Source: Candidatus Yanofskybacteria bacterium
GTDB lineage: Bacteria > Patescibacteriota > Minisyncoccia > 2-02-FULL-40-12 > GWA2-44-9
Length of the DNA: 50,606 bases
Assembly (NCBI GenBank): GCA_016181145.1
Contig: JACOZW010000002.1
Span: 1 to 50,606 of the forward strand
Direction: 5' to 3'
Part shown: positions 16,331-38,852 of the stretch, piece by piece
Layout: the number at the start of each line of letters is the position of its first letter
Numbering within the stretch: position 1 is the first letter of the stretch
Program-made: the position numbers and the translations under genes
Notes under the pieces: model-generated
What the model was told of the DNA's origin: nothing
The model's input: the letters and a program-made list of their open reading frames with translations, nothing else
Database searches by the model: none

Positions 16331-16365
16331 ACACTGCCTCAAAAAAGTTAGTGATAATTCAGAGT

Positions 16366-16394
16366 AAACCGATATTAAACAAATCGGTTTTTTA
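16366..16394 (+). terminator. intrinsic terminator
   Basis: AAACCGAT-ATTAAACAA-ATCGGTTT hairpin followed by TTTT. Confidence 0.6.
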
Positions 16395-16397
16395 AAC

Positions 16398-16426
16398 TTG
16401 TGCTGTAATTGTATATGTGTTATAAA
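16398..16426 (+). promoter_or_regulatory. candidate promoter TTGTGC-N17-TATAAA (TG-extended -10)
   Basis: -35 at 16398-16403 and -10 at 16421-16426, preceded by TGT. Confidence 0.35.
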
Positions 16427-16459
16427 ATTAAAACTAGCATTTTAACAAGGGGTGTAGTT

Positions 16460-23494: not shown

Positions 23495-24448
23495 ATGTTC
23501 GATGGTAGCAAGGTTTTAGTTACTGGCGGAGCCGGTTTTATCGGAACTAACCTCATAAAAAGACTCCTCGAAACAGGGGCCGTTATCAAAGCCACTTTCC
23601 ATCAGCAGGAACCCACAGAATTCATTGATCGGGTTAACTATATAAAAGCTGACCTGACAAGAGAAAGAGATTGCCGAATGGTTAGTGAAGGAGTTGATTA
23701 TGTTTTTATGTGCTCATCTTATGCCCTGGGCGCAGGTAAGACCGAAGAAGAAAAACTGCGACACACTAATGACGATCTTACGATGACCTCTCTCATGCTT
23801 GAATCGTCCTGGCAAGCAAGAGCAAAGAAGTTTCTTTGGATAAGCAGTTGTGTTATATATCCCCTATCTGATTCTCCTCTTAAAGAAGAGCGTGGCCATG
23901 ATGATCCTCTCTTTGATAAATATTTTCTGATTGGGTCCGCCAAAAGACGCGGAGAAAAACTCTGCCAAGAATACGCCGAAAAAACCGAAGGTCAGATGAC
24001 TATTGTAGTCGTCAGACCGACTAGTGCTTACGGACCCCACGAAAACATGGCAACCTCCCATGTCATACCGGCTCTTATCCGGAAAGTTATCGAAAGAAAT
24101 GATCCGGTAGAAGTATGGGGTGACGGTACGGCCATTAAAGACCTTATCTATGCGGATGACCTTGCAAGAGGAATGATTCTGGCGATGGAGAAAGTAAATA
24201 GGTTTATGCCCATTAATCTCGGCTCCGGTGAACAAACAAGTATCAGAAGAATCGTAGAGACAATAATTAGAGTCGACGGCTACAGTAATGCAAGGATAGT
24301 TTTTGACCCGTCTAAACCCACGATGATACCGAAAATGCTCGTCGATGTTACCCGAGCCAAAGAAGTTTTGGGTTTCCAGACGACAACTAGCCTTGAAGAT
24401 GGGTTAAGAAAAACAATTGAGTGGTACAGACAGAAAAGAGATAAATAA
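23495..24448 (+). CDS. NAD-dependent epimerase/reductase, GDP-L-fucose-synthase-like
   Basis: VLVTGGAGFIGTNL, SSCVIYP and YGPHENMATSHVIPALIRK motifs. Confidence 0.8.
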   Translation: MFDGSKVLVTGGAGFIGTNLIKRLLETGAVIKATFHQQEPTEFIDRVNYIKADLTRERDCRMVSEGVDYVFMCSSYALGAGKTEEEKLRHTNDDLTMTSLMLESSWQARAKKFLWISSCVIYPLSDSPLKEERGHDDPLFDKYFLIGSAKRRGEKLCQEYAEKTEGQMTIVVVRPTSAYGPHENMATSHVIPALIRKVIERNDPVEVWGDGTAIKDLIYADDLARGMILAMEKVNRFMPINLGSGEQTSIRRIVETIIRVDGYSNARIVFDPSKPTMIPKMLVDVTRAKEVLGFQTTTSLEDGLRKTIEWYRQKRDK

Positions 24449-24513: not shown

Positions 24514-24541
24514 TTGACATCAGCTGACACTTTTTGATACT
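24514..24541 (+). promoter_or_regulatory. phased-hexamer promoter/operator element (copy C)
   Basis: TGACAT (24515-24520), TGACAC (24525-24530) and TGATAC (24535-24540). Also readable as TTGACA-N16-GATACT. It ends 16 nt before the ATG at 24557. Confidence 0.5.
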
Positions 24542-24556
24542 CTAAGGTCAGATAAT

Positions 24557-25651
24557 ATGCCCAACAACGCATCGACAAACGCAGGTATCACAATCCCCAC
24601 GATGAACAGAGCTGATTTCGTTATCCGACAACTTCGCTACTATGCGTCGGTCAAGTGCCCACATACCATTTATATCGGCGACTCAAGCGACAAAGAAGAT
24701 TCGGAAAAAATACAAAATGAGGTAAAGCGGCTCGGAAGCTCGATCAAAGCAAAGTACTATTCTCTGCCCTCCTACAATATCTGGCAAGCCCACTATTATC
24801 TCCTCACCCAAGTAGAAGAAAAGTATACCTGTCTTAGCGGTGATGATGATTACCAGATACCAGATTCGGTAACTGAATGCGCCAAGTTTCTTGAAAATAA
24901 CCCGGAATATACAACCGCGAGCGGACATGCCGTAAGCTTCAGATTAAATCCTCATGGGGTCTATGGAAAACTTCTGAGGTTGGCTGATTATCACCGAGGA
25001 CAGATAGAAAATGGATCTGCCGCCGACCGGATCGTAGAATATTTCAATAGTTACTTTGTGACTTTTTTTTCTGTAAATAGAACTGAACAGACAAAAAGAT
25101 GCTGGAAAAGCTCCGAAAAAATACCGGACCAGGCATTTGGAGCAGAGATCCTGCCGTCATCCCTGCAAATAGTTAACGGCAAATCAAAGATAATAGATTG
25201 CCTTGGCTTCATAAGGCAGATCCATGGCCAACAGAATGGGTTAGTAAACACTTTCGAATGGATTACCAAGCCCATCTGGCTTGAATCGTATGAAAAATTT
25301 GAAAAAATAATTTCTGATGCCATGGTGGAGCGTGGCGGTATAAGCTATGCAGAGGCTAGAGAAGCAACACGATTGGGATTTTGGTCTTATCTTCAAACCT
25401 GGCTGGCAAAAGATTATAGAAGTACACTCTCGAGCAAAGGCCTGGACAAAACCAAGGACAGTAAAATAAAAGTCTTAAAAAGTACGCTTAAAAAGAAACT
25501 GCCCCTAATAGGAAAGGTGTATTCTGCGATAAAGCCCTTTATCTCAGATAAAAAGTATCTGCATTACGAAGTGCTTCAAAATAGCTCCAAATACTATAAG
25601 GATTTTAAGCCGGTCATGGATTCATTTACCGGTCAGATCAGGAATACCTGA
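24557..25651 (+). CDS. putative GT-A/GT2-like glycosyltransferase
   Basis: ITIPTMNRADF and SGDDDYQIP (DxD-like) resemble GT2 signatures. The remainder is not recognisable by eye. Confidence 0.45.
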   Translation: MPNNASTNAGITIPTMNRADFVIRQLRYYASVKCPHTIYIGDSSDKEDSEKIQNEVKRLGSSIKAKYYSLPSYNIWQAHYYLLTQVEEKYTCLSGDDDYQIPDSVTECAKFLENNPEYTTASGHAVSFRLNPHGVYGKLLRLADYHRGQIENGSAADRIVEYFNSYFVTFFSVNRTEQTKRCWKSSEKIPDQAFGAEILPSSLQIVNGKSKIIDCLGFIRQIHGQQNGLVNTFEWITKPIWLESYEKFEKIISDAMVERGGISYAEAREATRLGFWSYLQTWLAKDYRSTLSSKGLDKTKDSKIKVLKSTLKKKLPLIGKVYSAIKPFISDKKYLHYEVLQNSSKYYKDFKPVMDSFTGQIRNT

Positions 25652-25667: not shown

Positions 25668-25695
25668 TTGACACTTTCTGATACCTTTTGATACC
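25668..25695 (+). promoter_or_regulatory. phased-hexamer promoter/operator element (copy D)
   Basis: TGACAC (25669-25674), TGATAC (25679-25684) and TGATAC (25689-25694). Also readable as TTGACA-N16-GATACC. Confidence 0.5.
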
Positions 25696-25724
25696 ATCTA
25701 GGGGTTGGCAGATTACTCATTTTA

Positions 25725-25768
25725 TTTTACCTATAAGCAACCCTAACCAGGGTTGCTTATAGGTAAAA
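25725..25768 (+). promoter_or_regulatory. perfect 20-bp stem / 4-nt loop hairpin in the predicted 5' leader of the nonulosonic-acid operon
   Basis: TTTTACCTATAAGCAACCCT-AACC-AGGGTTGCTTATAGGTAAAA has no mismatch. There is no U tract after it on either strand. Confidence 0.5.
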
Positions 25769-25800: not shown

Positions 25801-26559
25801 ATGAAAAAGGTGCGTATAATTCCACGCCTAGATATAAAAGGCCCTAACGTCGTGAAGGGTATTCACTGCGAGGGTTTACGTGTAGTTGGAAACCCCAAAG
25901 ACCTAGCTTATCGATATTATCGGGATGGAGCTGATGAAATTCTCTTTATGGATATAGTAGCCAGCCTATATCAACGCAACTTTGACTTTAATATTTTGAG
26001 ATCGATATCCGAAAGAATATTTATCCCCATAACCGTAGGGGGTGGTATTCGATCGATTAATGACATTAATAATGCGCTAAGATCTGGTGCTGATAAAGTT
26101 GCTATAAATACTTATGCCATTAAACACCCTGAGTTCCTGGGCACAGCGGCTCGAAAATTCGGATCTCAATGCATAGTTCTATCCATAGAGGCCAAAAGAA
26201 CTCCGTCTGGATGGTGGGAAGCCTACACAGATGGCGGGAGGGAGCACACTGGAATAAATGCTATTGAATGGGCGAGAAGGGCAATCAAGCTTGGAATTGG
26301 AGAGATTTTGGTCACATCAATAGATAATGACGGAACCAGGGATGGCTTTGATAATCAACTAATCCGATCTATCTCTTCTTTCTCTCCGGTTCCCGTAGTA
26401 ATTCATGGCGGAGCAGGATCTAAAAATTCATTTCTGAATGCTTGCCAAACCCATTTACCAGAAGGTCTGTCTGCTGCGTCTGTTTTCCATTATAAAGAGC
26501 TGTCCATAAAAGACTTGAAAAAATATTTATATAAAAATAATATTCCGGTACGGATATGA
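25801..26559 (+). CDS. hisF: imidazole-glycerol-phosphate-synthase cyclase-subunit homologue (HisF-like, WbuZ type)
   Basis: RIIPRLDIKGPNVVKG, ILFMDIVAS, ITVGGGIRS, EILVTSIDNDGT and IHGGAG motifs. Start set to the ATG at 25801 (MKKVRIIPRLD), because the listed TTG at 25753 lies inside the hairpin. Confidence 0.9.
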   Translation: MKKVRIIPRLDIKGPNVVKGIHCEGLRVVGNPKDLAYRYYRDGADEILFMDIVASLYQRNFDFNILRSISERIFIPITVGGGIRSINDINNALRSGADKVAINTYAIKHPEFLGTAARKFGSQCIVLSIEAKRTPSGWWEAYTDGGREHTGINAIEWARRAIKLGIGEILVTSIDNDGTRDGFDNQLIRSISSFSPVPVVIHGGAGSKNSFLNACQTHLPEGLSAASVFHYKELSIKDLKKYLYKNNIPVRI

Positions 26560-27188
26560 CACGAAAAAAAATTGCTATAATTGATTACGGCGTTGGCAAC
26601 TTACATAGCCTCCTAAAGGCCTTTGATCGATTTGGACAAAACAGTTTCATAACCGAAGAATCAAGCGATATTGATTCGGCTGATGCTATCGTCTTACCAG
26701 GCGTCGGCGCATTTCAATCTGGCATGGATGGATTAAAAATAAGAAACCTGATCAATCCCATAAAAAATTATGCGGAACAGAAAAAGCCCATTCTGGGAAT
26801 ATGTCTTGGAGCTCAAATCCTAATGTCTGAGGGATACGAATTTGGTAGATTTAAAGGCCTTGATATAATTCCGGGCAAAGTAGTGATTTTCAAAAATATA
26901 ACAGAAAAAGTACCCCACATAGGCTGGAATGAGATCTATTCACCGGCATCCGCAAATTGGAATAAGTCTATATTGAAATCAGTCAAATCTAACTCTGATG
27001 TTTATTTTGTCCATTCTTATATATTTCAGCCCAAAAATTATAAAAACATATTAGCGATTACCAAATATGGTGGTCTGGAGTTCTGCTCAGCAATATATAA
27101 AGATAGAATTTATGGTTGCCAGTTCCATCCGGAAAAAAGTGGAGAAATAGGATTAAAAATAATAAAAAACTTTATTGAACTAATATGA
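26556..27188 (+). CDS. hisH: glutamine amidotransferase subunit homologue (HisH-like, WbuY type)
   Basis: IAIIDYGVGNLHSL, LPGVGAF, GICLGAQIL (Cys nucleophile) and FHPEKS motifs. ATGA overlap with the upstream gene. Confidence 0.9.
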   Translation: MTRKKIAIIDYGVGNLHSLLKAFDRFGQNSFITEESSDIDSADAIVLPGVGAFQSGMDGLKIRNLINPIKNYAEQKKPILGICLGAQILMSEGYEFGRFKGLDIIPGKVVIFKNITEKVPHIGWNEIYSPASANWNKSILKSVKSNSDVYFVHSYIFQPKNYKNILAITKYGGLEFCSAIYKDRIYGCQFHPEKSGEIGLKIIKNFIELI

Positions 27189-28429
27189 AAACACTGTATG
27201 GTTTGCCCGAAAAAGTTATTTTTTGCAAGAAATGTGTAATATCAAACCAGCGCCCAAGTTCAGCTGTAGAGTTTAAGCACACCATTAAAAGCAAGAAGGA
27301 GACTATCCACTTCAATGAGAATAATGTATGCGATGCTTGCCTATATAACGAACAGAAAAAAAATATTGACTGGGACCTGAGGGAAAAAGAACTAATAAAG
27401 CTCTGTAATAAATATAGGAAGAGAAATGGTCAATACGATGTCTTGGTGCCCGGATCAGGAGGAAAAGACAGTATAAAAGCAGCTCATGTATTAAAGTACA
27501 AGTACGGAATGCATCCCCTTACTGTTACCTGGGCACCCCACATGCATACGCCCTGGGGATGGAAAAATTTCGAATCATGGATCCACTCCGGCTTTGATAA
27601 CTATCTATGCACACCCAACGGAAAGGTTCATCGACTCCTCACTAGATTAGCTGTCGAGAACTTATTCCATCCCTTTCAGCCGTTTATGATCGGCCAGAAA
27701 TCTCTTGCCCCAAAGATGGCATTATTATTCCGAATTCCCCTGATAATTTTCGGTGACAATGAAGCGGAATATGGCAATCCGATCGCCGACAACAATACCG
27801 CCCTGAGGGATTGGAAATATTTTACAGCAGAAGACCAAACCAAAATTTATTTAGGAGGAGTTTCTTTCAGGGATTTGAAGAGCAAATATGGACTCATCGA
27901 TGCAGACTTAATCCCCTACTTGCCGGCTGACCCCAAAGAGCTTAAGAGATTAAAAGCTGAAGTCCATTATCTGGGATACTATATGAAATGGCATCCGCAG
28001 GAATCCTATTATTATTCAGTGAAACATGCCGGCTTCCAGGCATCACCGGAAAGAACTCCCGGCACATACAGTAAATATAACAGCATAGACGACAAGATAG
28101 ATGACTATCATTACTATACGACCTTTATCAAGTTCGGGATTGGACGGGCAACATATGATGCCGCCCAAGAAGTCAGAAACGGAGAAATAACCCGCGAAGA
28201 AGGTGTGTCGTTAATACATAGATTCGACGGTGAATATCCGGACAGATTCGAAAAGGAGATATTTGATTATCTGACAATCGGCAAGCACGAATTCCCTAAG
28301 GCCTACAAGGAGTTGGGACATCCGGATATGAATAAGGATTATTTTATGAAATTGGCCGATAAATTCAGATCGCCTCACCTTTGGAAAAAAGAAAAAAATA
28401 AATGGATATTACGCCACCAAGTAAAATAG
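27185..28429 (+). CDS. N-acetyl sugar amidotransferase (WbuX / PseA family, PP-loop ATPase)
   Basis: PP-loop VLVPGSGGKDS and an N-terminal Cys cluster CKKCVISNQRP...CDAC. The gene order hisF-hisH-amidotransferase matches known acetamidino-sugar loci. Confidence 0.85.
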   Translation: MKTLYGLPEKVIFCKKCVISNQRPSSAVEFKHTIKSKKETIHFNENNVCDACLYNEQKKNIDWDLREKELIKLCNKYRKRNGQYDVLVPGSGGKDSIKAAHVLKYKYGMHPLTVTWAPHMHTPWGWKNFESWIHSGFDNYLCTPNGKVHRLLTRLAVENLFHPFQPFMIGQKSLAPKMALLFRIPLIIFGDNEAEYGNPIADNNTALRDWKYFTAEDQTKIYLGGVSFRDLKSKYGLIDADLIPYLPADPKELKRLKAEVHYLGYYMKWHPQESYYYSVKHAGFQASPERTPGTYSKYNSIDDKIDDYHYYTTFIKFGIGRATYDAAQEVRNGEITREEGVSLIHRFDGEYPDRFEKEIFDYLTIGKHEFPKAYKELGHPDMNKDYFMKLADKFRSPHLWKKEKNKWILRHQVK

Positions 28430-28430
28430 C

Positions 28431-29420
28431 ATGAGAAATATTCTAAGAGATTACAAAATTTTCGATATAGATCCCACTAGATCCAGAAGTAAGGACTTCT
28501 ATAAGAACATGCTTGATTACCGAGATCATACGATGAAACAATACCATCCCGCCATTAAAAGAGCTGGCTTTAAATGTTTGCTGTGCGGAAAATCTAGGGC
28601 AAAAGAGTTTCTGGAGTATGAGAATTATAAATTATTTGACTGCCTTTCCTGCGGATTAGTTTCACCTAACATAGATCTAGAAAAACTTAAATCGCTAGAA
28701 ATATATGATGACCCAGCCTATATCAAAGATGCGACGAGAGAGATATTAGATACTTATAATTACAGAAAGGGACAGTATGCACCGGAAAGATTAAATTATA
28801 TCCTCCAGAAAACTAAACTATCGCCTAATAAAATAAAATTACTAGACTTAGGCTGTGGCCCAGGATATTTCTTGAGCTATCTAAAAAATAAAAAGATAAA
28901 ATATAAGGGACTCGAATTAGCCAACTTCTTAGTTAAAATCTGCAAGCAAAAAAATCTTAATGTAGAGGGCTCTGATTTAAGAAAAGAGGTCTCTCAAAGC
29001 TATAATGTTATAACAATGTTTGATGTACTTGAACATTTAACGGATCCGGTTGGCTTGTTTAAGGATCTGAATAATAAAATAGTAAAGGGTGGATACGTTT
29101 TAGCATATACTCCCAATATCCACTCCTTGGCCTATTCACTAATGAAAGAAAGGCAGAATACTCTATATCCATTTCAACATTTGGCATTTTTTGACAACAA
29201 GTCGCTTAACTACCTTGCGAAAAAGACAGGATTTAAGGTTTTTTCAATAGATTACTTCGGATTAGATGTGGCGGATTACTTATACATGAAAGCTTATGAT
29301 GATGCTCATGACTATTTAGAAAAACTAAAAGATTTTATACCGACAATGCAAGCGGTAATTGATAAACAAAACTTAAGTAATCACATGCGAATAATATTTA
29401 AAAAAATAAAAAATGTATAA
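28431..29420 (+). CDS. class I SAM-dependent methyltransferase with N-terminal zinc ribbon
   Basis: CLLCG...CLSCG (two CxxC pairs), LLDLGCGPGYF and ITMFDVLEHL motifs. Confidence 0.85.
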   Translation: MRNILRDYKIFDIDPTRSRSKDFYKNMLDYRDHTMKQYHPAIKRAGFKCLLCGKSRAKEFLEYENYKLFDCLSCGLVSPNIDLEKLKSLEIYDDPAYIKDATREILDTYNYRKGQYAPERLNYILQKTKLSPNKIKLLDLGCGPGYFLSYLKNKKIKYKGLELANFLVKICKQKNLNVEGSDLRKEVSQSYNVITMFDVLEHLTDPVGLFKDLNNKIVKGGYVLAYTPNIHSLAYSLMKERQNTLYPFQHLAFFDNKSLNYLAKKTGFKVFSIDYFGLDVADYLYMKAYDDAHDYLEKLKDFIPTMQAVIDKQNLSNHMRIIFKKIKNV

Positions 29421-30111
29421 GAATAAAAAAATATTAGCCGTCATTACGGCACGCGGAGGATCCAAGGGAGTACAAAGAAAAAATATTAAGCCGCTGAATG
29501 GTCATCCCCTTATATCATATGTGATAAATACAGCTAAAGGATCAAAGCTCATAGATCAGGTTATAGTGTCTACCGAGGATAAGGAAATAGCCGAAATAGC
29601 AAAAAAATATGGTGCAATGGTACCTTTCATGCGCCCATTAGAACTCGCGAGTGATACCGCCAAAAGCCTCGATGTTCTCCTGCATGCCGTAAAGTATCTA
29701 GAGCAGGTAAATAAATATAAGGCCGATATTATTGTGTTAATCCAACCGACCACTCCGCTATCAATCACACAGGATATCGATGATTGTATTAAAAAACTAG
29801 TAGATACGCGCTCTAATTCCTGCACTACTGTAGCTGAAGTAGTAGAAAGGCCAGAGTATATGTATTCAATAAAAAACAATAAGGCTGTAGCTTATGTAAA
29901 AAATAGAGATCCAGAAGCTCGACGTCAAGACTTATCTAAGCTTTACATTTCAAATGGAGCGGCTTTCGCCGTAAAGAGAAATATACTGGTCAATAAGAAT
30001 ATGCTCGTGGACGAAGGGAATCACACTGCAGTAATAATGCCGAGAGAACGCTCCGTAGATATAAATGAGCCGCTAGATTTCAAGATTATCGAGGCACTAT
30101 TAGCAAAATAA
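29413..30111 (+). CDS. neuA: CMP-nonulosonic acid synthetase (acylneuraminate cytidylyltransferase)
   Basis: AVITARGGSKGVQRKNIKPLNGHPLI N-terminal signature, about 230 aa. Confidence 0.9.
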   Translation: MYKNKKILAVITARGGSKGVQRKNIKPLNGHPLISYVINTAKGSKLIDQVIVSTEDKEIAEIAKKYGAMVPFMRPLELASDTAKSLDVLLHAVKYLEQVNKYKADIIVLIQPTTPLSITQDIDDCIKKLVDTRSNSCTTVAEVVERPEYMYSIKNNKAVAYVKNRDPEARRQDLSKLYISNGAAFAVKRNILVNKNMLVDEGNHTAVIMPRERSVDINEPLDFKIIEALLAK

Positions 30112-30118
30112 CAAAGCT

Positions 30119-31174
30119 ATGAATGAAACAATAAGAATTGGATCTAAATCTATCGGCAAAGACAAGCCTGTTTTTATTATCGCTGAAGGCGGAGTTAATC
30201 ACAACGGACGCCTCGACTTGGCCTTGAAACTAGTTGATGCCGCCGCCGATGCCGGTGCTGATGCAATTAAGTTTCAGACTTGGACCACGCCAGAGTTAGT
30301 TACGATGCAGGCTCAAATGGCAGAATATCAGAAAAAAAATCTAGGTAAAACTACCTCTCAGGCGGAAATGCTCAGAAAAGTTGAATTAAAAGAAGAATAT
30401 TTTCCGGCAATTTTAAGGAGAGCTGCTAAAAGAAAACTTATCCTCCTATCGTCAGCTCATGGCGGATTTGCCGCCGTAGACCGAGTTCAAAGACTAGGAC
30501 TTCCGGCATTTAAGATAGCTTCTGGAGACACGGTAAATTATCCTATCCTAGCTCACGCTGCAAAATATGGAAAGCCCATAATTCTTGGAACTGGTATGTG
30601 CACAATGGCCGAGCTAAAAGAATCAATCCGAATTATGCGAAAAGCCGGAAATGATAAGATCGTCATGCTTCATTGCACAACCAACTATCCGACACCTTCT
30701 AACGAAGTAAACCTTCGAGCGATGCTGACAATGATGAGGGAGCTAGATGTTCTTATCGGTTACTCCGACCACACCATCGGCCATCAAGTTGCGACAATGG
30801 CTGTTACACTTGGCGCGTGCTGTATTGAAAAGCACTTGACACTTGATAAGAATATGGAGGGGCCGGACCACAAAGCATCGAGCGAACCACAAGAATTTAA
30901 GGCTATGGCAGACTCGATTCGCAATATAGAGGTTATTATGGGATCGCCGATTAAAAAGCCTTGCCCGAGCGAAACTAGAATAATGGCTATCGCCAGAAAG
31001 AGCATAGTCACGACTGCAACGATTAAAAAAGGTGATAGATTCACTAAAAATAATATTGGCATCAAGAGACCCGGCAACGGCATACCACCACAGCATTACT
31101 GGAAAATTCTAGGAGAGACTGCCAAAAAAAATATCTCTTCCGACAAGATCCTAAGACCATCTGATATAGAGTAA
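30119..31174 (+). CDS. neuB: N-acylneuraminate (nonulosonic acid) synthase
   Basis: FIIAEGGVNHNG, ADAIKFQTW and SDHT motifs, with a C-terminal SAF domain (IVTTATIKKGDRFTKNNIGIKRPG). Confidence 0.92.
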   Translation: MNETIRIGSKSIGKDKPVFIIAEGGVNHNGRLDLALKLVDAAADAGADAIKFQTWTTPELVTMQAQMAEYQKKNLGKTTSQAEMLRKVELKEEYFPAILRRAAKRKLILLSSAHGGFAAVDRVQRLGLPAFKIASGDTVNYPILAHAAKYGKPIILGTGMCTMAELKESIRIMRKAGNDKIVMLHCTTNYPTPSNEVNLRAMLTMMRELDVLIGYSDHTIGHQVATMAVTLGACCIEKHLTLDKNMEGPDHKASSEPQEFKAMADSIRNIEVIMGSPIKKPCPSETRIMAIARKSIVTTATIKKGDRFTKNNIGIKRPGNGIPPQHYWKILGETAKKNISSDKILRPSDIE

Positions 31175-31197
31175 ATTGTGTCACAATTTTTTATTTT

Positions 31198-32343
31198 ATG
31201 AAAAAGAAAGTACTGATAATTACAGGTGCTAGGTCCGAATACGGTTTATTAAAACCGGTGTTCCTAGAAATGCAAAAAAGTAAAAAAATAGAACCTCTTC
31301 TTTTGGTTACCGGCATGCATACTCTTAAAAAACATGGATACACGGTCAATGAAGTCAAGAACGATGGCATACCGATAGCTCATGTTGCAAGTATATCAGA
31401 AGACGACGATATGCTTTCAGCTTTAGCCAGCGAAATAACTAGTATTAAAAAGTACTGCATAGCCAATAAGCCCAACCTAATCCTAGTTAATGGCGATAGG
31501 GATGAGTCATTTGCGGGAGCAATCGTAAGTGGCCATTTAAAAATACCTCTTGGCCACATTCATGGCGGAGATGTAACCGGATTCGTGGTCGATGAATATA
31601 TCAGACATGCAACAACTAAGTTTGCCCATCTCCATTTTACAGCTAGTCCGGCCAGCTACAGGAGAGTACTTAAGCTGGGTGAGGAAAAATGGCGGGTTTT
31701 TTGTACGGGATCAACTGGACTGGACAGATATTCCGACATGGGTTTCCTTCCTAAGGAGGATCTAGCTAAGAAATATAATCTTAATCTGAATAAAAAATGG
31801 TTTTTAGTTATTCATCACCCAACACCATTAGATAAAATCTCGATCAAGCAGCAGATCAATCCCCTATTAGCCTCTCTGGCGGATTCTAAGGATACTGAAA
31901 AGATTGTTATTTATCCCAACTCCGATATGGGCAGTAAATTATTTATTAAAGAGATAAACAGATATAAAAATCGCCAAGATTTTCATATATATCCCAATGT
32001 TTCACTAAAAGACCATGCTAGTTTTATGAAAAATGTCAATATATTGATCGGTAATTCCAGTTCGGGTATCATTGAGGCGGCTTATTTCAAGCTACCAGTA
32101 GTCAATATAGGCAACCGGCAGAGGGGAAGGGAAAGAGATAATAATGTAATAAACTGCGCCTATGATAGAGAAAGTATTGAAAAATCGATTACTCTTGCTT
32201 CTTCGGCAAAATTTGTCAAAGATTGTAAAAAAATAAGAAGTCTATACAAATCCGGAGCTAGTAAAAAAATAGTTAAAATCATTGAACAAAATATCGATAA
32301 AAAAAATCTGTTTTTAAAGGAATTTACCTACTCAAAAATCTAA
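31198..32343 (+). CDS. neuC: UDP-N-acetylglucosamine 2-epimerase (hydrolysing)
   Basis: ITGARSEYGLLKPV, GDRDESFAGAI, GHIHGGD and NSSSGIIEA motifs. Confidence 0.88.
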   Translation: MKKKVLIITGARSEYGLLKPVFLEMQKSKKIEPLLLVTGMHTLKKHGYTVNEVKNDGIPIAHVASISEDDDMLSALASEITSIKKYCIANKPNLILVNGDRDESFAGAIVSGHLKIPLGHIHGGDVTGFVVDEYIRHATTKFAHLHFTASPASYRRVLKLGEEKWRVFCTGSTGLDRYSDMGFLPKEDLAKKYNLNLNKKWFLVIHHPTPLDKISIKQQINPLLASLADSKDTEKIVIYPNSDMGSKLFIKEINRYKNRQDFHIYPNVSLKDHASFMKNVNILIGNSSSGIIEAAYFKLPVVNIGNRQRGRERDNNVINCAYDRESIEKSITLASSAKFVKDCKKIRSLYKSGASKKIVKIIEQNIDKKNLFLKEFTYSKI

Positions 32344-34070
32344 TGCCATCTAAAACCAAAAAGCCAGTAAGAATTCTAGGAATTGGACCAGAGGTCTGGA
32401 TATCTTCGGCTGCCTTAATAGAAAATGGACGAATAGTCGCCGGTGCAGCCGAAGAAAGATTTAACCGACAGAAAGCATCTAGGGATTTCCCATTTAAATC
32501 TATTGAGCATTGTCTCAAGGAGGCAAAATGTAAATTCGAGGACATAGACTATGTTGCGGTCGGCTGGAATCCGGCCGTACACCTGAAGTTATATAATTAT
32601 AGATTTTCCAAGGCCTCGAGATGGCGGGCCGAATATTTATATTCCATACCAAACCACCTAATGACCCTGATGAAAGATAAGAAGGTAGATTATGTCGAGC
32701 AGAACTTCGCTCAAAAAAACGGAAAATGCCGGATAGCTTACGTGAACCACCATACTGCACACGCCGCTAATGCATTTTTCTTGTCACCCTATAAAAAGGC
32801 GGCTATTTTGACAGTCGACGGAAGAGGTGAAGATGACACTGCCCTATTTGCAATCGGCAATGGAAATAAAATAGAGGAGCTTCGAACCGTAGAACATCCT
32901 CACTCGCTAGGACTTGTTTATACTACATTCACCCAATTTCTGGGATTTCAAATCCATACTGACGAATGGAAGGTAATGGCTCTAGCCTCCTATGGTAGTA
33001 AAAATAATAGTTATTATACGTCTCTTAAAAAGATGTTTAAGCTGAAACCAGATGGACGTTTTGAAATTGATCTAACTTATTTTGATTATTACCTGCATGA
33101 TCGAAATAATTTTTGGTCACATAAGCTCACTCGAATATTCGGAGAGCCAAGAACTCCTGATTCGAAAATAACAAAAAGACATCAAGATATTGCCGCCGCC
33201 CTGCAACAAGTTACCGAGGAAGTTCTAGCTCATATGCTCAACTGCCTGTATAAAGAAACCGGAATAACTAACTTAACAGTTGGTGGAGGTACATTCATGA
33301 ATTCCGTTTTTAACGGAAAAATAACTAAAATGACGCCATTTAAAAATGTTTTTATTTCTTCTTGCCCAGATGACAGCGGCATATCAATAGGCGCCGCAAC
33401 CTACGTTTATAATCACATACTTGGCAACCCACACCGCTATGAGCAATCTCATAACTTCTACGGGCCAGAACTCACGGCCAGCCAGATCAATAAGGACCTG
33501 CTGAAATATGGCCAGAAAGCTACCTATATAAAAAATATAGAAAATTACGCAGCAAGACTAATTAGTGAGGGCAAAATCATAGGCTGGTTCCAGGGAAAAA
33601 TGGAATTCGGGCAAAGGGCTCTTGGGAACAGGTCCATATTAGCGGATGCCAGAGATCCAAACATGAAGGATAGAGTTAACTCGGTAATAAAATACCGAGA
33701 AAGTTTCCGGCCGTTTGCACCATCTATATTAGAAGAAGAGGTTCATGATTACTTCGACTGTGCAAAAAATTCTAAAGTTCCTTTCATGGAGAGGGTGTAC
33801 TTAATTAAGGAGGATAAACAAAAATCTATTCCGGCAGTAACCCATATCGATGGCACCGGGAGGTTACAGACAGTCAGCAGGGCCACTAACCCAAGATACT
33901 ATAAACTAATAGAAGAGTTTAAGAAACTCACTGGAATTCCCGTGGTAATGAACACTTCGTTTAACCTAAAGGGAGAACCGATCGTCTGTACCTCAACGGA
34001 TGCTATCAGGACTTTCCATTCCTGTGGATTAGATGCTTTGATAATTGGAAACTATGCGCTCTTAAAATAG
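32343..34070 (+). CDS. carbamoyltransferase (NodU/CmcH family)
   Basis: ILGIGPEVWISSAALIENGRIV, NHHTAHAANAF and NTSFNLKGEPIV motifs. TAATG overlap with neuC. Confidence 0.9.
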   Translation: MPSKTKKPVRILGIGPEVWISSAALIENGRIVAGAAEERFNRQKASRDFPFKSIEHCLKEAKCKFEDIDYVAVGWNPAVHLKLYNYRFSKASRWRAEYLYSIPNHLMTLMKDKKVDYVEQNFAQKNGKCRIAYVNHHTAHAANAFFLSPYKKAAILTVDGRGEDDTALFAIGNGNKIEELRTVEHPHSLGLVYTTFTQFLGFQIHTDEWKVMALASYGSKNNSYYTSLKKMFKLKPDGRFEIDLTYFDYYLHDRNNFWSHKLTRIFGEPRTPDSKITKRHQDIAAALQQVTEEVLAHMLNCLYKETGITNLTVGGGTFMNSVFNGKITKMTPFKNVFISSCPDDSGISIGAATYVYNHILGNPHRYEQSHNFYGPELTASQINKDLLKYGQKATYIKNIENYAARLISEGKIIGWFQGKMEFGQRALGNRSILADARDPNMKDRVNSVIKYRESFRPFAPSILEEEVHDYFDCAKNSKVPFMERVYLIKEDKQKSIPAVTHIDGTGRLQTVSRATNPRYYKLIEEFKKLTGIPVVMNTSFNLKGEPIVCTSTDAIRTFHSCGLDALIIGNYALLK

Positions 34071-34074
34071 ACCG

Positions 34075-35058
34075 ATGACTCAACGACATAAAAAAATAGT
34101 TATCATTGGAGCTGGCCAGATCGGAAGCAGGCATCTACAAGCCATGAAATCGGTCAGTTTACCACTAGAGATACTGATTGTTGACCCTAGTACCAAATCC
34201 CTACAGACAGCCGAGGAAAGATATTTATCGATGCCAAAAGGTAAATTTGAGCATGCGCTCAAATTTCAAAACAGCATGCCCAATAACCTAATTTTCGACT
34301 TAGCTATTATTGCAACGTGTTCCGATATAAGAGCTAAGGTAACCGCAAAACTATTAAATTCCAATCGCATAGACAATCTAGTCCTGGAGAAGATTCTCTT
34401 CGCTAACGGATCCGACTATAAGACTATCGGAAAATTACTAAATAAATCTGATGCAACCGCCTGGATTAACTGCCCAATGAGAATGATGCCTGCATACCAA
34501 GCGATAGAAAAATATTTTAAGAAAGAAAAAATTTCATACATAGTCACCGGGAGTAAATTCGGCCTTATAACCAATGCGATACACTATCTTGACCACGCAT
34601 CTCATTTATCCGGTACGACAGAGTTTGAAATCAATACCGATGGCCTTAATTCGAAACCGATTAGCAGTAAGCGAAAAGGGTTTTTGGAATTCAACGGGAC
34701 TTTGACTGCTCACTTTTCAAATGGAAGTAATGTATCACTAACTTGCCATCCCGAAGGAAATGCTCCGATTATAGTTGAAATACACGGCAATAAAACTAAA
34801 TATATCGGCCGAGAATCCGAAGGAAAAGCCTGGCTGGCGAGAGCCGACAATAATTGGCATTGGGAAGAGTTGGAAGCTCCCATCCCCTTCCAAAGCCAGT
34901 TGACGACTATACTAACTGAGAAAATATTAAATACAGGTAAATGCGATCTGGTTTCATATAATGAATCCGGAAAGATCCACCTAAACATGCTCGAGCCATT
35001 AAGATATTTTTTAAACAAGAACTCAAAAAAGAAATATAAAGAATATCCCTTCACGTAA
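34075..35058 (+). CDS. Gfo/Idh/MocA-family oxidoreductase
   Basis: KIVIIGAGQIGSRHLQA N-terminal Rossmann motif, with length and layout typical of the family. Confidence 0.7.
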   Translation: MTQRHKKIVIIGAGQIGSRHLQAMKSVSLPLEILIVDPSTKSLQTAEERYLSMPKGKFEHALKFQNSMPNNLIFDLAIIATCSDIRAKVTAKLLNSNRIDNLVLEKILFANGSDYKTIGKLLNKSDATAWINCPMRMMPAYQAIEKYFKKEKISYIVTGSKFGLITNAIHYLDHASHLSGTTEFEINTDGLNSKPISSKRKGFLEFNGTLTAHFSNGSNVSLTCHPEGNAPIIVEIHGNKTKYIGRESEGKAWLARADNNWHWEELEAPIPFQSQLTTILTEKILNTGKCDLVSYNESGKIHLNMLEPLRYFLNKNSKKKYKEYPFT

Positions 35059-35101: not shown

Positions 35102-36169
35102 CTAGATCAGGCCGGAGATAATATTTTTCGCCCGAATAGAATTTCTACCATCAAGACTGAATGCCTTCTCCTGGGCGTCACGAAGACCAAGATCAGAGTT
35201 CAAGGCCTTATCCAATAGCGATATAAGTTCTTCACGGTTTCCCGCCCTGGCTGTACATCCCAGAGAGATTAGCGGGTATTCATCTGTTTTTGTTACATCT
35301 GTATATACTTTTAAGCCGTGGTCGGGATATAAAATAGCGATGTTCGGCAGCCTTAGAATAGCCGCTTCATTCAAAGTAGTAGAAAACATAGATAATACCA
35401 CATCGGACGTAGCCAGAACATCAGAGATACCAAAAGAAGAGGAATCAACTAACGTTCCCGCGCGAAATTCGGTAAGAGCCCTCTCCCAAAGCGGAACCTC
35501 TTCCGGCGTATTGTCCTTCATTGCCGGATGAGGCCGGGCAATGAAATATACATCCTGCCCGAGCTGATTCAAGGCATGTACCGCCTCACCAACAGCATGT
35601 CCGGTCTGCCACCATTGACCGGCAAACATAACTACCGGCTTGTTTTCCGACAAGGATAGGGCATATTTAACCCTTACCTTAGTGCCTTGAACATCAAGCC
35701 TCGCATATTTATCGAGAGCCGGATAACCGGTAACAAAGATATTGCCACAAAAATCTGGCCAAGCTCTTAAAACAAAATTTCTGTCTAGTTCATCGTTCAC
35801 GAGAACTAAATCCGGCCGATACTCCTGGTCGATCCAAACATCACTAAGGCCATTGGTCCACTGATCCTGGATTACTACAATCGGACAGGTGCCTCGAAAA
35901 AGTCTGGCAATCTCCTGACCAACCGTAGAACACATACTGGAGACAACCAGATCTACGCCGCCAGGATACCTAGATATAATCTTATCGATAGCATCATCGT
36001 TAGATGAAAAAATATCAAAATCATAGCCAGAATTCCTTAATATATCTTTCCCTCTGCCGTTATCCTGCGCTATCCACCGAATTCTATGATTTTTTTTGAG
36101 CAGATCCATCACTGGTAGAAGAGCATTGGCCCCGCCCACATCTTTGCACACAGCTAGAATTACTCCCAA
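35102..36169 (-). CDS. GT-B-fold protein of the glycosyltransferase / 2-epimerase superfamily, function unknown
   Basis: Two-Rossmann layout, with TGYPALDKY and ARPHPAM (HP motif) plus a C-terminal STTLNEAAILRLPNIAI helix. TTG start, with GGAGG 6 nt upstream. Confidence 0.35.
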   Translation of the reverse strand: MGVILAVCKDVGGANALLPVMDLLKKNHRIRWIAQDNGRGKDILRNSGYDFDIFSSNDDAIDKIISRYPGGVDLVVSSMCSTVGQEIARLFRGTCPIVVIQDQWTNGLSDVWIDQEYRPDLVLVNDELDRNFVLRAWPDFCGNIFVTGYPALDKYARLDVQGTKVRVKYALSLSENKPVVMFAGQWWQTGHAVGEAVHALNQLGQDVYFIARPHPAMKDNTPEEVPLWERALTEFRAGTLVDSSSFGISDVLATSDVVLSMFSTTLNEAAILRLPNIAILYPDHGLKVYTDVTKTDEYPLISLGCTARAGNREELISLLDKALNSDLGLRDAQEKAFSLDGRNSIRAKNIISGLI

Positions 36170-36237: not shown

Positions 36238-36290
36238 TATAGAAGCTCGCCTTAAATTATGGTATAAAAATATAGTTTAATTTGGACTTC

Positions 36291-37226
36291 ATGAGTAATA
36301 CTCTACTGATCGGAACCGGTTATATGGGTAAGGAATACGCAAAAGTTTTAAAGACCCAAAGGGTTAGTTTTGCCGTTGTCGGACGCTCTCAAGAATCAAC
36401 TGACAAATTTAAAAATGAACTTGGCATAGATGCTATGCCCGGAGGCATAGATAGATGGCTTAAGACCAATCCCGTCCCGCAAAAGGCAATCATTGCTGTC
36501 ACCGAGGATCAGCTTGGAATAGTGACCAGAAGCTTAATCGACTCGGGATGTAAATCAATCTTGGTTGAGAAACCGGGTGGTTTAGATGCCCAAGATATTA
36601 AAAAAGTTGCTATTTCGGCAAGAAAGAAGAGATCGAAAGTTTATGTAGGTTACAACCGCCGTTTTTATACCTCGACTCAAAAAGCCATGGAAATCATACG
36701 GAAAGAAGGTATTAAGTCATTTGTTTTTGATTTTACAGAACGAAGCAATATTATTGATAAATTACCCCAATCACAAAAGATAAAGAACAACTGGTTTATA
36801 CAAAACTCAACTCATGTTATCGATATGGCCTTTTTCTTGGGTGGTAATCCGTCTAAACTAACTGCATATAAAAAAGGCGGTCTAAAATGGCACCCCAGCG
36901 GTTCTATCTACAGCGGAGCCGGCGTATCCAGCAAGGGGGTACTATTTTCCTATCACGCTAATTGGGAATCGGCCGGCCGCTGGAGCTTAGAAATAATTAC
37001 CGGAAGGCAAAAGCTAATATTTCGACCCCTAGAGAAACTTCAGGCCCAAAAATTCGGGAGCATGACCATTGAAGATGTGATTCTGAATGATAAGATTGAT
37101 ACAGACTTTAAACCAGGCATATACAGACAAGTTCAGTCTTTTCTGGGAAATAAAGAGAACCTTCTCACCATAGAAGAACAGGTCAAAAATTTGCCATATT
37201 ATAAAAAAATAGCTGGCAGAATCTAA
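36291..37226 (+). CDS. Gfo/Idh/MocA-family oxidoreductase
   Basis: LLIGTGYMGKEYAKVL Rossmann motif and VEKPG motif. I prefer the ATG at 36291 to the listed TTG at 36282. Confidence 0.75.
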   Translation: MSNTLLIGTGYMGKEYAKVLKTQRVSFAVVGRSQESTDKFKNELGIDAMPGGIDRWLKTNPVPQKAIIAVTEDQLGIVTRSLIDSGCKSILVEKPGGLDAQDIKKVAISARKKRSKVYVGYNRRFYTSTQKAMEIIRKEGIKSFVFDFTERSNIIDKLPQSQKIKNNWFIQNSTHVIDMAFFLGGNPSKLTAYKKGGLKWHPSGSIYSGAGVSSKGVLFSYHANWESAGRWSLEIITGRQKLIFRPLEKLQAQKFGSMTIEDVILNDKIDTDFKPGIYRQVQSFLGNKENLLTIEEQVKNLPYYKKIAGRI

Positions 37227-37228: not shown

Positions 37229-38122
37229 ATGTCAATATTATCAAAAATAAGACACGTCGATAGCTACCTTTACCGCAATCTAATTGCGCCACGCTTGTAT
37301 TCTTGGCGCGATCGCAAGATTTTAGAAAAAAATCTTGAGCTCAAGAATAAATATGCCGGAAAGCGTTGTTTTATTATCGGTGGCGGACCATCGGTGTCCA
37401 ATATAGATCTCGGGATTTTAAGTAACGAATACACATTTGTAATGGCTGAGTTTGATAAGAATCTGGAATATCTAAAGCTAATGCCCAAGTTCCACATAAT
37501 CGCCGATTCAGCTTATTTCTCCGAAGATCAAACGGAATACTGGCCTGAAAGATTAAGGGCTAAAAGCGGGTTTATCCCCACGCAAACAATAATGTATATA
37601 AATATTGGGGCTAAGTCTTTTATTGATAAATACGGTCTATTTAAAAACCATAGGGTTTACTTTATCGGCATGCAAGGAATTTTTACTGAAAATCTTCCGT
37701 TTAATATAGGCCTGACTAAATATGTTCCCTACCCTAAAAATTCTGTGTTAATGTGTCTAATGGTAGCTCACTGGATGGGGTTCGAAGAAATTTATCTATT
37801 GGGCTGTGAGCATAATTTTTTATCCTTTAACATAGGCCGAGGTAAATCATTAGTATATAGCCATAGCTATCAAGACGAGCTATCAAAACTTGATCCATCT
37901 AACGACGCGGTACTCAAAAAATATATCTCGCCACGTGACTTAAAACTAACATATGAAAAGAATATCGCCCATGTATTGCAGTTATTTAAAAATTATCGGT
38001 TTTTCTATAAGCGGGCCAGGGAAGAAAATCCAAAAATAAGAATCTTAAATGCCACGCCTGATAGTTTCTTAGATGTCTTTCCTATGGTAAATTTTGAGGA
38101 TATAAAATTTGATGGAAAATAA
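37229..38122 (+). CDS. DUF115 / MptE-like (Maf-type) protein
   Basis: RCFIIGGGPSVSNID ... IYLLGCEHNF is the same domain architecture as the N-terminal half of 1035..2630. Confidence 0.6.
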   Translation: MSILSKIRHVDSYLYRNLIAPRLYSWRDRKILEKNLELKNKYAGKRCFIIGGGPSVSNIDLGILSNEYTFVMAEFDKNLEYLKLMPKFHIIADSAYFSEDQTEYWPERLRAKSGFIPTQTIMYINIGAKSFIDKYGLFKNHRVYFIGMQGIFTENLPFNIGLTKYVPYPKNSVLMCLMVAHWMGFEEIYLLGCEHNFLSFNIGRGKSLVYSHSYQDELSKLDPSNDAVLKKYISPRDLKLTYEKNIAHVLQLFKNYRFFYKRAREENPKIRILNATPDSFLDVFPMVNFEDIKFDGK

Positions 38123-38852
38123 AAACTACACAGATAAAAAATTCTGGGATAATTACTTCCAAGAACGAGGCATTCGTCCGCTTGAACAAACACCTTTTGC
38201 CGATATCTTTACTAAATATTTAACTCCCGACCCCGCAAAACATGCATTTGAAATCGGTTGTGCTGGAGGAATTTATCTTGCCTATCTGGCTAAGACTTTC
38301 GGATATCATGCGTCGGGCATAGATTATTCCGACGAGATCAAGCAAACACAGACTTTGTTCAAATTCCATAATCTGCCCGAACCTACATTGTATAAAGAGG
38401 ATTTTTTTTCCTTCCGACCGCCACACTTGTATGATGTTGTCTGTTCATTCGGTTTCGTAGAACATTTTAATAATTTCCAGAGCATTGTCCGCCTACATGC
38501 CGCCTTAGTTGCCAATGGAGGTACCCTTATTATTACCATGCCGCACTTCTCTGGCTTACAATATGCCTTCCACTGGCTTATTGACCGCGACAACCTCGGC
38601 AAGCACAACATAGGCGTCATGAATCCCGCCTCGCTTAAAACCGCTCTCACCGGATTGCCATTTCAGATAGAATACCTTGATTACTACAAAACCTTCGGAT
38701 TTTGGACCGAAAAAAAAGATTTCGCCCCATGGGAGAAAATGGCTTTTGGGATTATCCGTAAATTAGGAAAAATAGCCCAGGTCATATTAGGATATGACCG
38801 GCCGAACCGCTGGATCTCTCCGCACATAGTTTGCGTAGCCAAAAAAATATAA
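38109..38852 (+). CDS. class I SAM-dependent methyltransferase
   Basis: AFEIGCAGGIYLAYLA (motif I), VVCSFGFVEHF and LVANGGTLIITMP motifs. Confidence 0.8.
   Translation: MMENKNYTDKKFWDNYFQERGIRPLEQTPFADIFTKYLTPDPAKHAFEIGCAGGIYLAYLAKTFGYHASGIDYSDEIKQTQTLFKFHNLPEPTLYKEDFFSFRPPHLYDVVCSFGFVEHFNNFQSIVRLHAALVANGGTLIITMPHFSGLQYAFHWLIDRDNLGKHNIGVMNPASLKTALTGLPFQIEYLDYYKTFGFWTEKKDFAPWEKMAFGIIRKLGKIAQVILGYDRPNRWISPHIVCVAKKI

Follow-up and report, generated by a model that had tools for sequence, protein, structure and literature searches.

A nine-gene operon in a Candidatus Yanofskybacteria genome that may build an amidinated and carbamoylated nonulosonic acid

Nonulosonic acids stand at the outer tip of microbial surface glycans, and it is on their small substituents that recognition by phages, lectins, immune receptors, and host cells depends. 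Here we analyze a stretch of 50,606 nucleotides from Candidatus Yanofskybacteria bacterium (contig JACOZW010000002.1 of assembly GCA_016181145.1; hereafter the window), which is contig 1 of a 0.95-Mb genome in 68 contigs that is 92% complete. The names of the closest homologs place the genome among the Parcubacteria. The window carries a nine-gene operon on the + strand (25801-35058) in which a NeuC/NeuB/NeuA core is joined to an amidination module of the Legionella type and to a carbamoyltransferase of the TobZ type. Amidino nonulosonic acids are already well known, N-methylated forms among them. On balance, we think that this operon, served by one promoter, probably makes a nine-carbon sugar resembling sialic acid, activates it, and decorates it.

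The O-chain of Legionella pneumophila is a homopolymer of 5-acetamidino-7-acetamido-legionaminic acid, which is 8-O-acetylated and sometimes N-methylated but is not known to be carbamoylated. This composition implies that the substrate of the Legionella amidotransferase (PDB 8WEX) is a nonulosonic acid. The paper describing the structure names no substrate (PMC10607449). Like the window, the Legionella pathway has HisH/HisF partners, a NeuC/NeuB/NeuA core, and a close amidotransferase, whereas the dehydratase, aminotransferase, and N-acetyltransferase of its diamino precursor were not found in the window's genome. In Campylobacter the acetamidino group can carry an N-methyl group, and we know of no carbamoyl group on the flagellin glycans of that genus. 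Campylobacter Leg5Am7Ac resembles the predicted product in being an acetamidino nonulosonic acid and is handled by Maf-type transferases (PMC13130089, PMC9298399). It differs in its diamino legionaminic skeleton, made from GDP-GlcNAc by ptm genes (including ptmG/cj1324), and in its placement on flagellin; neither PtmE nor flagellin was found in the window's genome. Fusaminic acid of Fusobacterium nucleatum is a mono-amino sugar of the 5-acetimidoylamino-3,5,9-trideoxy form, on which, to our knowledge, neither a carbamoyl nor a methyl group has been reported. It is the product type expected of those relatives of our locus in which a dehydratase and a reductase accompany NeuC/NeuB; the window lacks both. 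Fusaminic acid is named in passing in one paper (PMC7371886), and the N-acetyl sugar amidotransferase (NASAT) of F. nucleatum is aligned in another (PMC10607449).

The Escherichia coli O145 cluster shares with the window an arrangement in which neuB, neuA, and neuC adjoin WbuX, HisH, and WbuZ genes, but it also has fnlA, wbjC, and wecB, has no carbamoyltransferase, and encodes NeuB and NeuC of other clades. The O145 trio aminates L-FucNAc (PMC10607449); FucNAc genes were not found in the window's genome. The Pse5Am7Gra/legionaminic acid-derivative system of Tannerella forsythia is similar in that a TagB-like GT-B protein adjoins nonulosonic acid genes. Its transferases (Tanf_01245, BFO_1060) carry a TagB-like domain, and their targets are surface-protein O-glycans, not flagellin (PMC5420450). 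Finally, TobZ, NovN, GdmN, and NodU have the two-domain architecture and conserved motifs of the window's carbamoyltransferase; they act on antibiotics or Nod factors, whereas the window enzyme belongs to a separate, NeuB-linked clade.

Anatomy of the operon

Open reading frame (ORF) listing and family scans place the ORFs named in an earlier sequence-only reading on the + strand exactly where that reading had put them, and the ATGA and TAATG stop/start overlaps it described are present in the sequence. The junctions between the nine genes are −4, −4, +1, −8, +7, +23, −1, and +4 nt. Because the gene that comes after them (35102-36169) is convergent, on the − strand, the unit comprises nine genes. 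In the 149-nt gap before the first of them, a consensus scan finds a promoter-like site (TTGACA, 18 nt, TACCAT; 25668-25697, + strand); three TGAYAC hexamers in 10-bp phase (25669, 25679, 25689) overlap with it. A regex search of the window detects such phased triples at 2685, 13138, 24515, and 25669 only. Between the TGAYAC promoter and the first start codon lies a perfect inverted repeat with 19-nt arms (25725-25768, + strand), present in a single copy in the genome. Its predicted stem has ~23 pairs and its predicted RNA fold −41 kcal/mol (z = −6.0 versus shuffles); the sequence contains no U-run after it.

The first three genes (25801-28429) match the family models of the HisF/HisH/WbuX-type trio that had been read there. 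A HisF/WbuZ-like cyclase-fold subunit (25801-26559; PF00977, His_biosynth, 212 bits) scores 283 bits with hisF and 252 bits with the TIGR03572 WbuZ model, each below the equivalog cut-off. The longest ORF opens at TTG 25753, but the family models align only from about residue 17, and hence the ATG at 25801 fits as the start. It is followed by a HisH-type class I glutaminase (26556-27188; GATase; TIGR01855 216 bits, cut-off 105), whose gene has an ATGA overlap at both ends, and by an N-acetyl sugar amidotransferase of the NASAT/WbuX family (27185-28429; TIGR03573 373 bits, cut-off 203). The fourth gene encodes an S-adenosylmethionine (SAM) methyltransferase (28431-29420; PF13489, Methyltransf_23, 75 bits) with an LLDLGCGPG motif and an N-terminal four-Cys zinc ribbon (Cys49/52/71/74); the "zinc-ribbon" label given to it earlier holds, with CxxC at residues 49-52 and 71-74.

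The family models bear out the NeuC-NeuB-NeuA core. A NeuA-like single-domain CMP-nonulosonic acid synthetase (29413-30111) has a CTP_transf_3 match (PF02348, 87 bits); its top NCBIfam match is PseF at 170 bits, below the cut-off of 206, and its top PDB match is the Vibrio cholerae CMP-N-acetylneuraminic acid (Neu5Ac) synthetase 6IFD at 136 bits. NeuB- and NeuC-type enzymes pass their family cut-offs: a nonulosonic acid synthase with an SAF domain (30119-31174; PF03102 287 bits; TIGR03569 421 bits, cut-off 400) and a hydrolyzing UDP-HexNAc 2-epimerase (31198-32343; Epimerase_2; TIGR03568 375 bits, cut-off 236). The TIGR03568 and TIGR03569 models also accept legionaminic-type enzymes. The last two genes encode the two-domain carbamoyltransferase of the NodU/CmcH/TobZ family (32343-34070; PF02543 194 bits, PF16861 244 bits) and, directly downstream as the sequence-only reading had it, a Gfo/Idh/MocA oxidoreductase (GFO1; 34075-35058; PF01408 28 bits, cut-off 24).

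The carbamoyltransferase and its linkage to NeuB and NeuC

Both domains of the carbamoyltransferase are full length (PF02543, Carbam_trans_N, cut-off 24; PF16861, Carbam_trans_C, cut-off 27), which bears out its assignment to the NodU/CmcH type and gives it the Kae1-like N-terminal and YrdC-like C-terminal domains that the NodU/CmcH/TobZ family requires. The protein aligned end to end with PDB 7XB6, NovN, GdmN, and TobZ at 258-301 bits. In a 12-sequence alignment, H136, H140, D159, and D343/D344 (H-x3-H...D...DD) are invariant and align with 7XB6; they correspond to the metal-site residues of TobZ. The carbamoyl-adenylate site motifs GxRALGxRS, FRPFAP, and NTSFN are invariant in the same alignment. 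The named solved relatives TobZ, GdmN, and NovN are O-carbamoyltransferases, and the top match, 7XB6, is labeled just "carbamoyltransferase"; a literature search found no paper mentioning PDB codes 7XB6 or 8HIU. With the NodU equivalog model the enzyme scores 167 bits (cut-off 1000). Its gene is undisrupted and strongly conserved. Homologs with 54-69% identity occur in bacteria of the candidate phyla radiation (CPR), Woesearchaeota/Nanoarchaeia, Omnitrophota, Desulfobacter, and other lineages. A class-level search of 120 other genomes recovered only carbamoyltransferases with 37-45% identity, which indicates that the close clade is patchy.

The surroundings of the gene were compared across 160 carbamoyltransferase loci with up to 10 kb per side, taken from species genomes and JGI metagenomes and searched with the window proteins. 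Removal of duplicates left 152 distinct loci, and the linkage counts use those with at least 10 kb of total flank. NeuB was present in all 11 loci whose carbamoyltransferase is at least 60% identical to the window enzyme, in 18 of 19 at 53-60% identity, in 23 of 41 at 48-53%, and in 3 of 27 below 48%. The NeuB/NeuC-adjacent clade spans CPR bacteria, DPANN archaea, Omnitrophota, Desulfobacter, Planctomycetota, and SAR11. A phylogeny of 81 homologs puts the window enzyme in a nine-row subclade with NeuB in eight of the loci, the ninth being a 4.5-kb contig with an adjoining NeuC; no NeuB is seen in the Streptomyces clade, in the main clade of Chitinophagaceae, or in most of the remaining distant clades.

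NeuC lies directly upstream of the carbamoyltransferase in the window and in loci L014-L017, L020, L106-L108, L111-L114, and L127. In Pfam-annotated contexts, the order NeuB-NeuC-carbamoyltransferase is followed in L103 and L108 by a reductase and a PseB/PglF-type 4,6-dehydratase, whereas in L104 and L011 a DegT aminotransferase replaces the reductase. In L106, L107, L112, and the window, the NeuA-NeuB-NeuC-carbamoyltransferase core stands alone, with no dehydratase in view. Since the core stays constant while its surroundings change, the enzyme most likely acts on the product or the substrate of NeuB/NeuC. From these comparisons of sequence and gene order, it very probably belongs to the nonulosonic acid pathway rather than tailoring another sugar. 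The sequence-only reading had remarked that carbamoylation of nonulosonic acids is not an established modification, and this agrees with the literature that we searched, which contained no report of a carbamoylated nonulosonic acid or of a carbamoyltransferase linked to such clusters. The top matches from the CPR literature do not mention nonulosonic acids.

In cultured Desulfobacter latus (L013/L025), the gene for a 54% identical carbamoyltransferase overlaps a separate small formyltransferase gene, and the pair lies in a NeuB/DegT/PtmE/NeuA cluster ~8 kb from flaG. This resembles a setting for flagellin glycosylation, in an organism that can be grown in culture. A fusion of formyltransferase and carbamoyltransferase (L026/L105) was not taken as functional evidence. 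In Pelagibacteraceae single-cell genomes and metagenome-assembled genomes (L037-L039, L057, L059), the carbamoyltransferase directly adjoins NeuB, together with PtmE-like and NeuA genes, and SAR11 locus L038 additionally holds the amidino trio and both Gfo/Idh/MocA genes. Cultured SAR11 strains are possibly a tractable test system.

Decorations, skeleton, and alternative readings

The amidotransferase matches NASAT of L. pneumophila (8WEX) over its full length at 696 bits and ~68% identity. Its family model match, the PP-loop (SGGKDS), the four zinc-site cysteines (CxxC...CxxC) aligned with 8WEX, and the ATGA-overlapping HisH and HisF genes are the features of the NASAT/WbuX family. It also shares the N-terminal insert of 8WEX, a segment absent in other family members according to the authors of that structure (PMC10607449). 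Identity to E. coli O145 WbuX is 24% over 118 residues only. The subtype is thus that of Legionella and not that of O145. The FucNAm precedent cited in the sequence-only reading speaks against that reading rather than for it, since the O145 trio adjoins neuBAC yet acts on another sugar. Six further loci, drawn from four phyla, have the trio alongside NeuB and the carbamoyltransferase (L015, L017, L019, L020, L026, L038). With no FnlA/PseB-type dehydratase found in the window's genome, there is no sign of a FucNAc-type route that the amidotransferase might serve instead. By analogy with Legionella, the amidino group most likely goes on the nine-carbon sugar, at N5. The identity between the CPR and Legionella amidotransferases far exceeds what phylum distance would lead one to expect, and this sequence similarity suggests horizontal transfer of the amidino module.

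Orthologs of the zinc-ribbon methyltransferase with 58-61% identity occupy the same slot (methyltransferase-NeuA-NeuB-NeuC-carbamoyltransferase) in L016/L113, L111, L112, and L127. GFO1 has a paralogous partner, GFO2 (36282-37226, + strand; PF01408 39 bits). The pair recurs by these clusters with or without a dehydratase: orthologs of GFO1 adjoin a GFO2 ortholog in L016 (48-49%), L107 (36%), L116, L120, L122, and SAR11 L038, and orthologs of GFO2 (52% in L010/L016, 44% in L107) each adjoin a GFO1 ortholog. The role of these enzymes is possibly redox epimerization, for which EpaA/EpaB, of other enzyme families, provide a precedent acting on a finished nonulosonic acid (PMC12053666).

Judged by homology, NeuC would free a 2-acetamido hexose from its UDP-HexNAc, NeuB would condense it with phosphoenolpyruvate, and NeuA would form the CMP-sugar. 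Starting from plain UDP-GlcNAc, as the gene content suggests, the product would be a Neu5Ac-like sugar with hydroxyls at positions 7, 8, and 9. The Legionella-type amidotransferase, with ammonia from HisH/HisF, would turn the N-acetyl into an acetamidino group, predicted at N5 of the nonulosonic acid. The carbamoyltransferase would act on the nonulosonic acid or its free hexosamine precursor, because its clade travels with NeuB/NeuC whatever else the cluster holds; if it follows family precedent, carbamoyl-AMP would form in the YrdC-like domain and be transferred to a hydroxyl in the Kae1-like domain. Across all three types of cluster seen among relatives, the carbamoyl group could sit at the C7 substituent (hexose C4) or at O4/O8. 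The zinc-ribbon methyltransferase would methylate this sugar, and the two Gfo/Idh/MocA enzymes may alter its stereochemistry. Its attachment to a non-flagellar glycan or glycoprotein of the cell surface would fall to a TagB-like transferase, a Maf-like transferase, or both. With respect to the sugar with three decorations proposed in the sequence-only reading, the core, the pathway membership of the carbamoyltransferase, and the amidotransferase subtype stand, whereas placement of all three groups on one sugar, the O-linkage, and the target of the methyl group are conjectural.

The type of skeleton was assessed from trees, solved relatives, and gene content. NeuC falls in a 12-row clade (support 100/99) apart from E. 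coli NeuC, and NeuB in a 7-row clade (SH-like approximate likelihood ratio test [SH-aLRT] 99) apart from E. coli K1 and O145 NeuB. Neither groups with chemically known Neu5Ac enzymes, for which E. coli K1 and O145 are the sole anchors in these trees, the other labels being taken from gene context. The top PDB match of NeuC is the GDP/UDP-diNAc-bacillosamine 2-epimerase 5ZLR at 190 bits, compared to 119 bits for human GNE, and its only bacterial structural anchor is LegG of A. baumannii (190 bits). Typing of NeuB by solved structures was dropped, as the scores for B. subtilis SpsE (205 bits), Neisseria meningitidis NeuB (190 bits), and PseI (184 bits) are too close. The PseI model gives 288 bits with NeuB, below its cut-off of 340, and the KIASGD motif has Gly where PseI has Phe (PMC7371886). 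A second criterion from the same paper, NeuB position 184, was of no use, as the residue is Thr and matches none of the three pathways (PMC7371886). The pseudaminic acid route is excluded by the NeuC-type epimerase together with this Gly. Phylogenetic placement, which the sequence-only reading had proposed as a check, sets both enzymes apart from the Neu5Ac enzymes of E. coli.

The gene content is that of the CMP-Neu5Ac pathway, which starts directly from UDP-GlcNAc, in that precursor-modifying genes were found neither in the window nor in its genome. The genome search detected no NeuD/PglD-type acetyltransferase and no PtmE-like enzyme. A 4-aminotransferase for the legionaminic route was not found either; the genome has two DegT genes, of which the copy on contig C42 was not examined. 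The best scores of legionaminic models in the window are 98 bits for LegB (cut-off 475) and 147 bits for LegC (cut-off 420). Upstream genes for a DegT enzyme, a short-chain dehydrogenase/reductase (SDR), and a 4,6-dehydratase (13218-16330) were considered as LegC/LegB and rejected, as their best models are RfbH and GMD/RmlB and they adjoin thiamine diphosphate (ThDP) branched-sugar genes; an RfbH-like DegT among GMD/RmlB-like SDRs and ThDP enzymes fits a dideoxy/branched-sugar pathway. Relatives carry the same core with and without a dehydratase, so that the window probably does lack one, rather than having it hidden in an assembly gap. The simplest product that the gene content suggests has a Neu5Ac-type skeleton, a view that we hold loosely.

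A number of findings weigh against the reading of the operon as a pathway for one decorated, sialic-acid-like sugar. A UDP-GlcNAc 4,6-dehydratase of the PseB/PglF type was not found in the 92%-complete genome, and almost all other members of the NeuB and NeuC clades come from dehydratase-bearing, 6-deoxy-type clusters, not from Neu5Ac-type ones. Because NeuB and NeuC cluster with 6-deoxy types and yet no dehydratase was found, the skeleton (Neu-like versus 9-deoxy) is uncertain, with gene content and phylogeny in disagreement. Three of the four methyltransferase-ortholog loci are without the amidino trio within the fetched flank, so amidine N-methylation, as it occurs in Campylobacter and Legionella, is not favored. 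Every acceptor assignment is based on gene neighborhood, and the window's other sugar pathways and many glycosyltransferases could supply other acceptors. In E. coli O145, moreover, an amidino trio adjoining neuBAC acts on another sugar (PMC10607449). As for the donor, carbamate kinase, the large subunit of carbamoyl-phosphate synthase, and ornithine carbamoyltransferase were not found in the 92%-complete genome. Neither carbamate kinase nor carbamoyl-phosphate synthase was found in five CPR relatives with the same cluster or in any of the nine carbamoyltransferase-bearing genomes of the class sample.

The carbamoyltransferase could instead act earlier, on the hexosamine precursor at its C4 substituent and in place of a LegH/PseH N-acetyltransferase, to give a 7-carbamoyl sugar that would be O-linked here and in reductase-type clusters and N-linked (ureido) in aminotransferase-type relatives. 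In relatives the gene directly precedes a reductase or aminotransferase and a 4,6-dehydratase. The operon in L104, which reads NeuB, NeuC, methyltransferase, carbamoyltransferase, DegT, dehydratase, transferase, has no acyltransferase, and a hexapeptide acetyltransferase like that of L011 occurs in only 1 of the 11 closest loci and 0 of the next 19, where other acyltransferase families were not systematically screened. Even so, we regard action on the precursor as unlikely: the cores in the window, L106, L107, and L112 have no adjoining dehydratase, reductase, or aminotransferase, which means that the enzyme is not tied to 4-position chemistry, and its solved relatives are O-carbamoyltransferases acting on finished scaffolds. 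That the carbamoyltransferase, the methyltransferase, or both decorate another sugar of the repeat, leaving the nonulosonic acid undecorated or merely amidinated, would agree with O145, where tailoring genes adjoining neuBAC act elsewhere (PMC10607449), with an island that encodes at least six glycosyltransferases and several further sugar pathways, and with the distant family members (Streptomyces, Chitinophagaceae, and others) that have no NeuB linkage. This is rendered quite unlikely by the persistence of the NeuB/NeuC linkage over more than 10 phyla while the rest of the cluster varies, and by the overlap of the carbamoyltransferase gene with the stop codon of NeuC.

A legionaminic-type 5,7-diamino acid, with the genes for the 4,6-dehydratase, aminotransferase, and N-acyltransferase lying elsewhere or in the 8% of the genome that is not assembled, would suit the ~68% identity of the amidotransferase to the Legionella enzyme, the diNAc-bacillosamine 2-epimerase as best solved relative of NeuC, and the separation of NeuB and NeuC from Neu5Ac enzymes in both trees. 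It would also suit the best solved relative of NeuB, SpsE of B. subtilis, which belongs to a legionaminic pathway (PMC7439481). We consider it very improbable, since no PseB/PglF-type dehydratase, NeuD/PglD-type acetyltransferase, or PtmE-like enzyme was found in the genome, the window's DegT (one of two in the genome) is RfbH-like among dideoxy/branched-sugar genes, and the close relatives L106, L107, and L112 are likewise without these genes near the core. Enzymes of the NodU/CmcH/TobZ family use carbamoyl phosphate and ATP, and a supply of carbamoyl phosphate was not evident in the window's genome. In a class sample of 121 genomes, nine (including the window's) carry a carbamoyltransferase homolog, those of the other eight being 37-45% identical; four genomes of the sample have carbamate kinase and one has carbamoyl-phosphate synthase. 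In total, 14 CPR genomes with such a transferase (6 of the nonulosonic acid-linked type and 8 with distant homologs) yielded neither enzyme. This could mean that the CPR enzyme activates another donor, for example carbamate or, in a TsaC-like manner, bicarbonate and ammonia, or that the gene is idle for want of a donor; the failure to find ornithine carbamoyltransferase in the window's genome and the single transcarbamylase-family match among the nine carbamoyltransferase-bearing class genomes point the same way. We give this little credence, as the enzyme fully retains the donor-site motifs of TobZ, GdmN, and NovN, its gene is undisrupted and strongly conserved, the genomes are incomplete, and a host could provide precursors. 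The carbamoyl donor may come from the host or by an undescribed route.

The surrounding glycan island and its significance

The whole window is a glycan island with ThDP enzymes, B12 radical SAM enzymes, several SDRs, a CotH/VTC module, and at least six glycosyltransferases. Directly upstream of the operon, a glycosyltransferase with a TIGR04440 domain (24557-25651, + strand; 158 bits, cut-off 70; without a Pfam match) has its own TGAYAC-repeat promoter, with phased hexamers at 24515, and is a possible transferase of the same glycan. The convergent gene downstream encodes a TagB/TagF-like GT-B protein (35102-36169, − strand; PF04464 39 bits). Its score with the BFO_1060 family model (NF046086) is 52 bits against a cut-off of 200, which sets it apart from the Tannerella system, and Glyphos_transf-like genes adjoin nonulosonic acid genes in L104 and L106. 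From its weak resemblance to the Tannerella Pse/Leg transferases, it is a candidate nonulosonic acid transferase. The gene after GFO2 encodes an MptE/Maf-like (DUF115) protein (37229-38122, + strand) with a PF01973 score of 24 bits, below the cut-off of 34.6; its 46% identical ortholog in L010 has a PF01973 match. By sequence similarity it is a candidate transferase that would glycosylate proteins with the nonulosonic acid. A search of the window's genome for a flagellin gene found none. A second class I SAM methyltransferase follows (38109-38852, + strand; PF13489 44 bits), with a 52% identical ortholog in L016.

Two genes of the island are split or truncated in the sequence. A GT4 glycosyltransferase (38861-40069) is cut by a single in-frame TAA (39623-39625) into a 254-amino-acid N-domain ORF and a 138-amino-acid C-domain ORF, while its ortholog in L010 is one protein of 419 amino acids; the stop codon arose by nonsense mutation, or it is an error at ~8× depth. 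A GDP-fucose-synthase-like SDR (16330-17391) is shortened to 224 amino acids, covering model positions 89-304, after a 386-nt gap, and is probably a gene remnant, an intact paralog being present at 23495-24448. Elsewhere in the genome, contig C59 (354-5896) carries a second, divergent ulosonic acid gene set that looks like a phosphate-dependent KDN-like route: a NeuB homolog of 296 amino acids without an SAF domain (TIGR03569 234 bits, below the cut-off), a KdsC/KDN-9-P-phosphatase-like haloacid dehalogenase (HAD) enzyme, and a second cytidylyltransferase, with two B12 radical SAM enzymes flanking.

The stretch was matched in groundwater metagenomes from one study. Among the low-depth Logan contigs from that study, the junction of NeuC and the carbamoyltransferase is bridged only in one run, possibly the source of this DNA. 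Low-depth contigs from three other groundwater samples match at ≥99% and then diverge at recurrent points, including 26273, 29394, 30175, and 33364. These points lie inside the operon and may reflect strain-level mosaicism of the glycan island.

Taken at its broadest, the idea of a decorated sialic-acid-like sugar would make carbamoylated nonulosonic acids, which in the window would be amidinated and methylated as well, a widespread but chemically undescribed class of surface sugars. A dedicated carbamoyltransferase clade would make them in CPR bacteria, DPANN archaea, SAR11, Omnitrophota, Planctomycetota, and sulfate reducers. CPR bacteria would obtain the carbamoyl group in a way not yet described, for instance by activating carbamate, or bicarbonate and ammonia, directly with ATP in the YrdC-like domain. 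We put this forward as speculation, with a rather slim chance of being correct as a whole. If carbamoylation of these sugars is true, it would add a new modification to the nonulosonic acid repertoire, give mass-spectrometry surveys a defined mass to look for, and provide a gene marker for the modification. The missing supply of carbamoyl phosphate raises a concrete biochemical question about the donor. The clade follows NeuB/NeuC into very distant and abundant lineages, such as SAR11 and groundwater CPR, and for host-attached CPR bacteria the operon points to an elaborate, co-regulated surface sugar.

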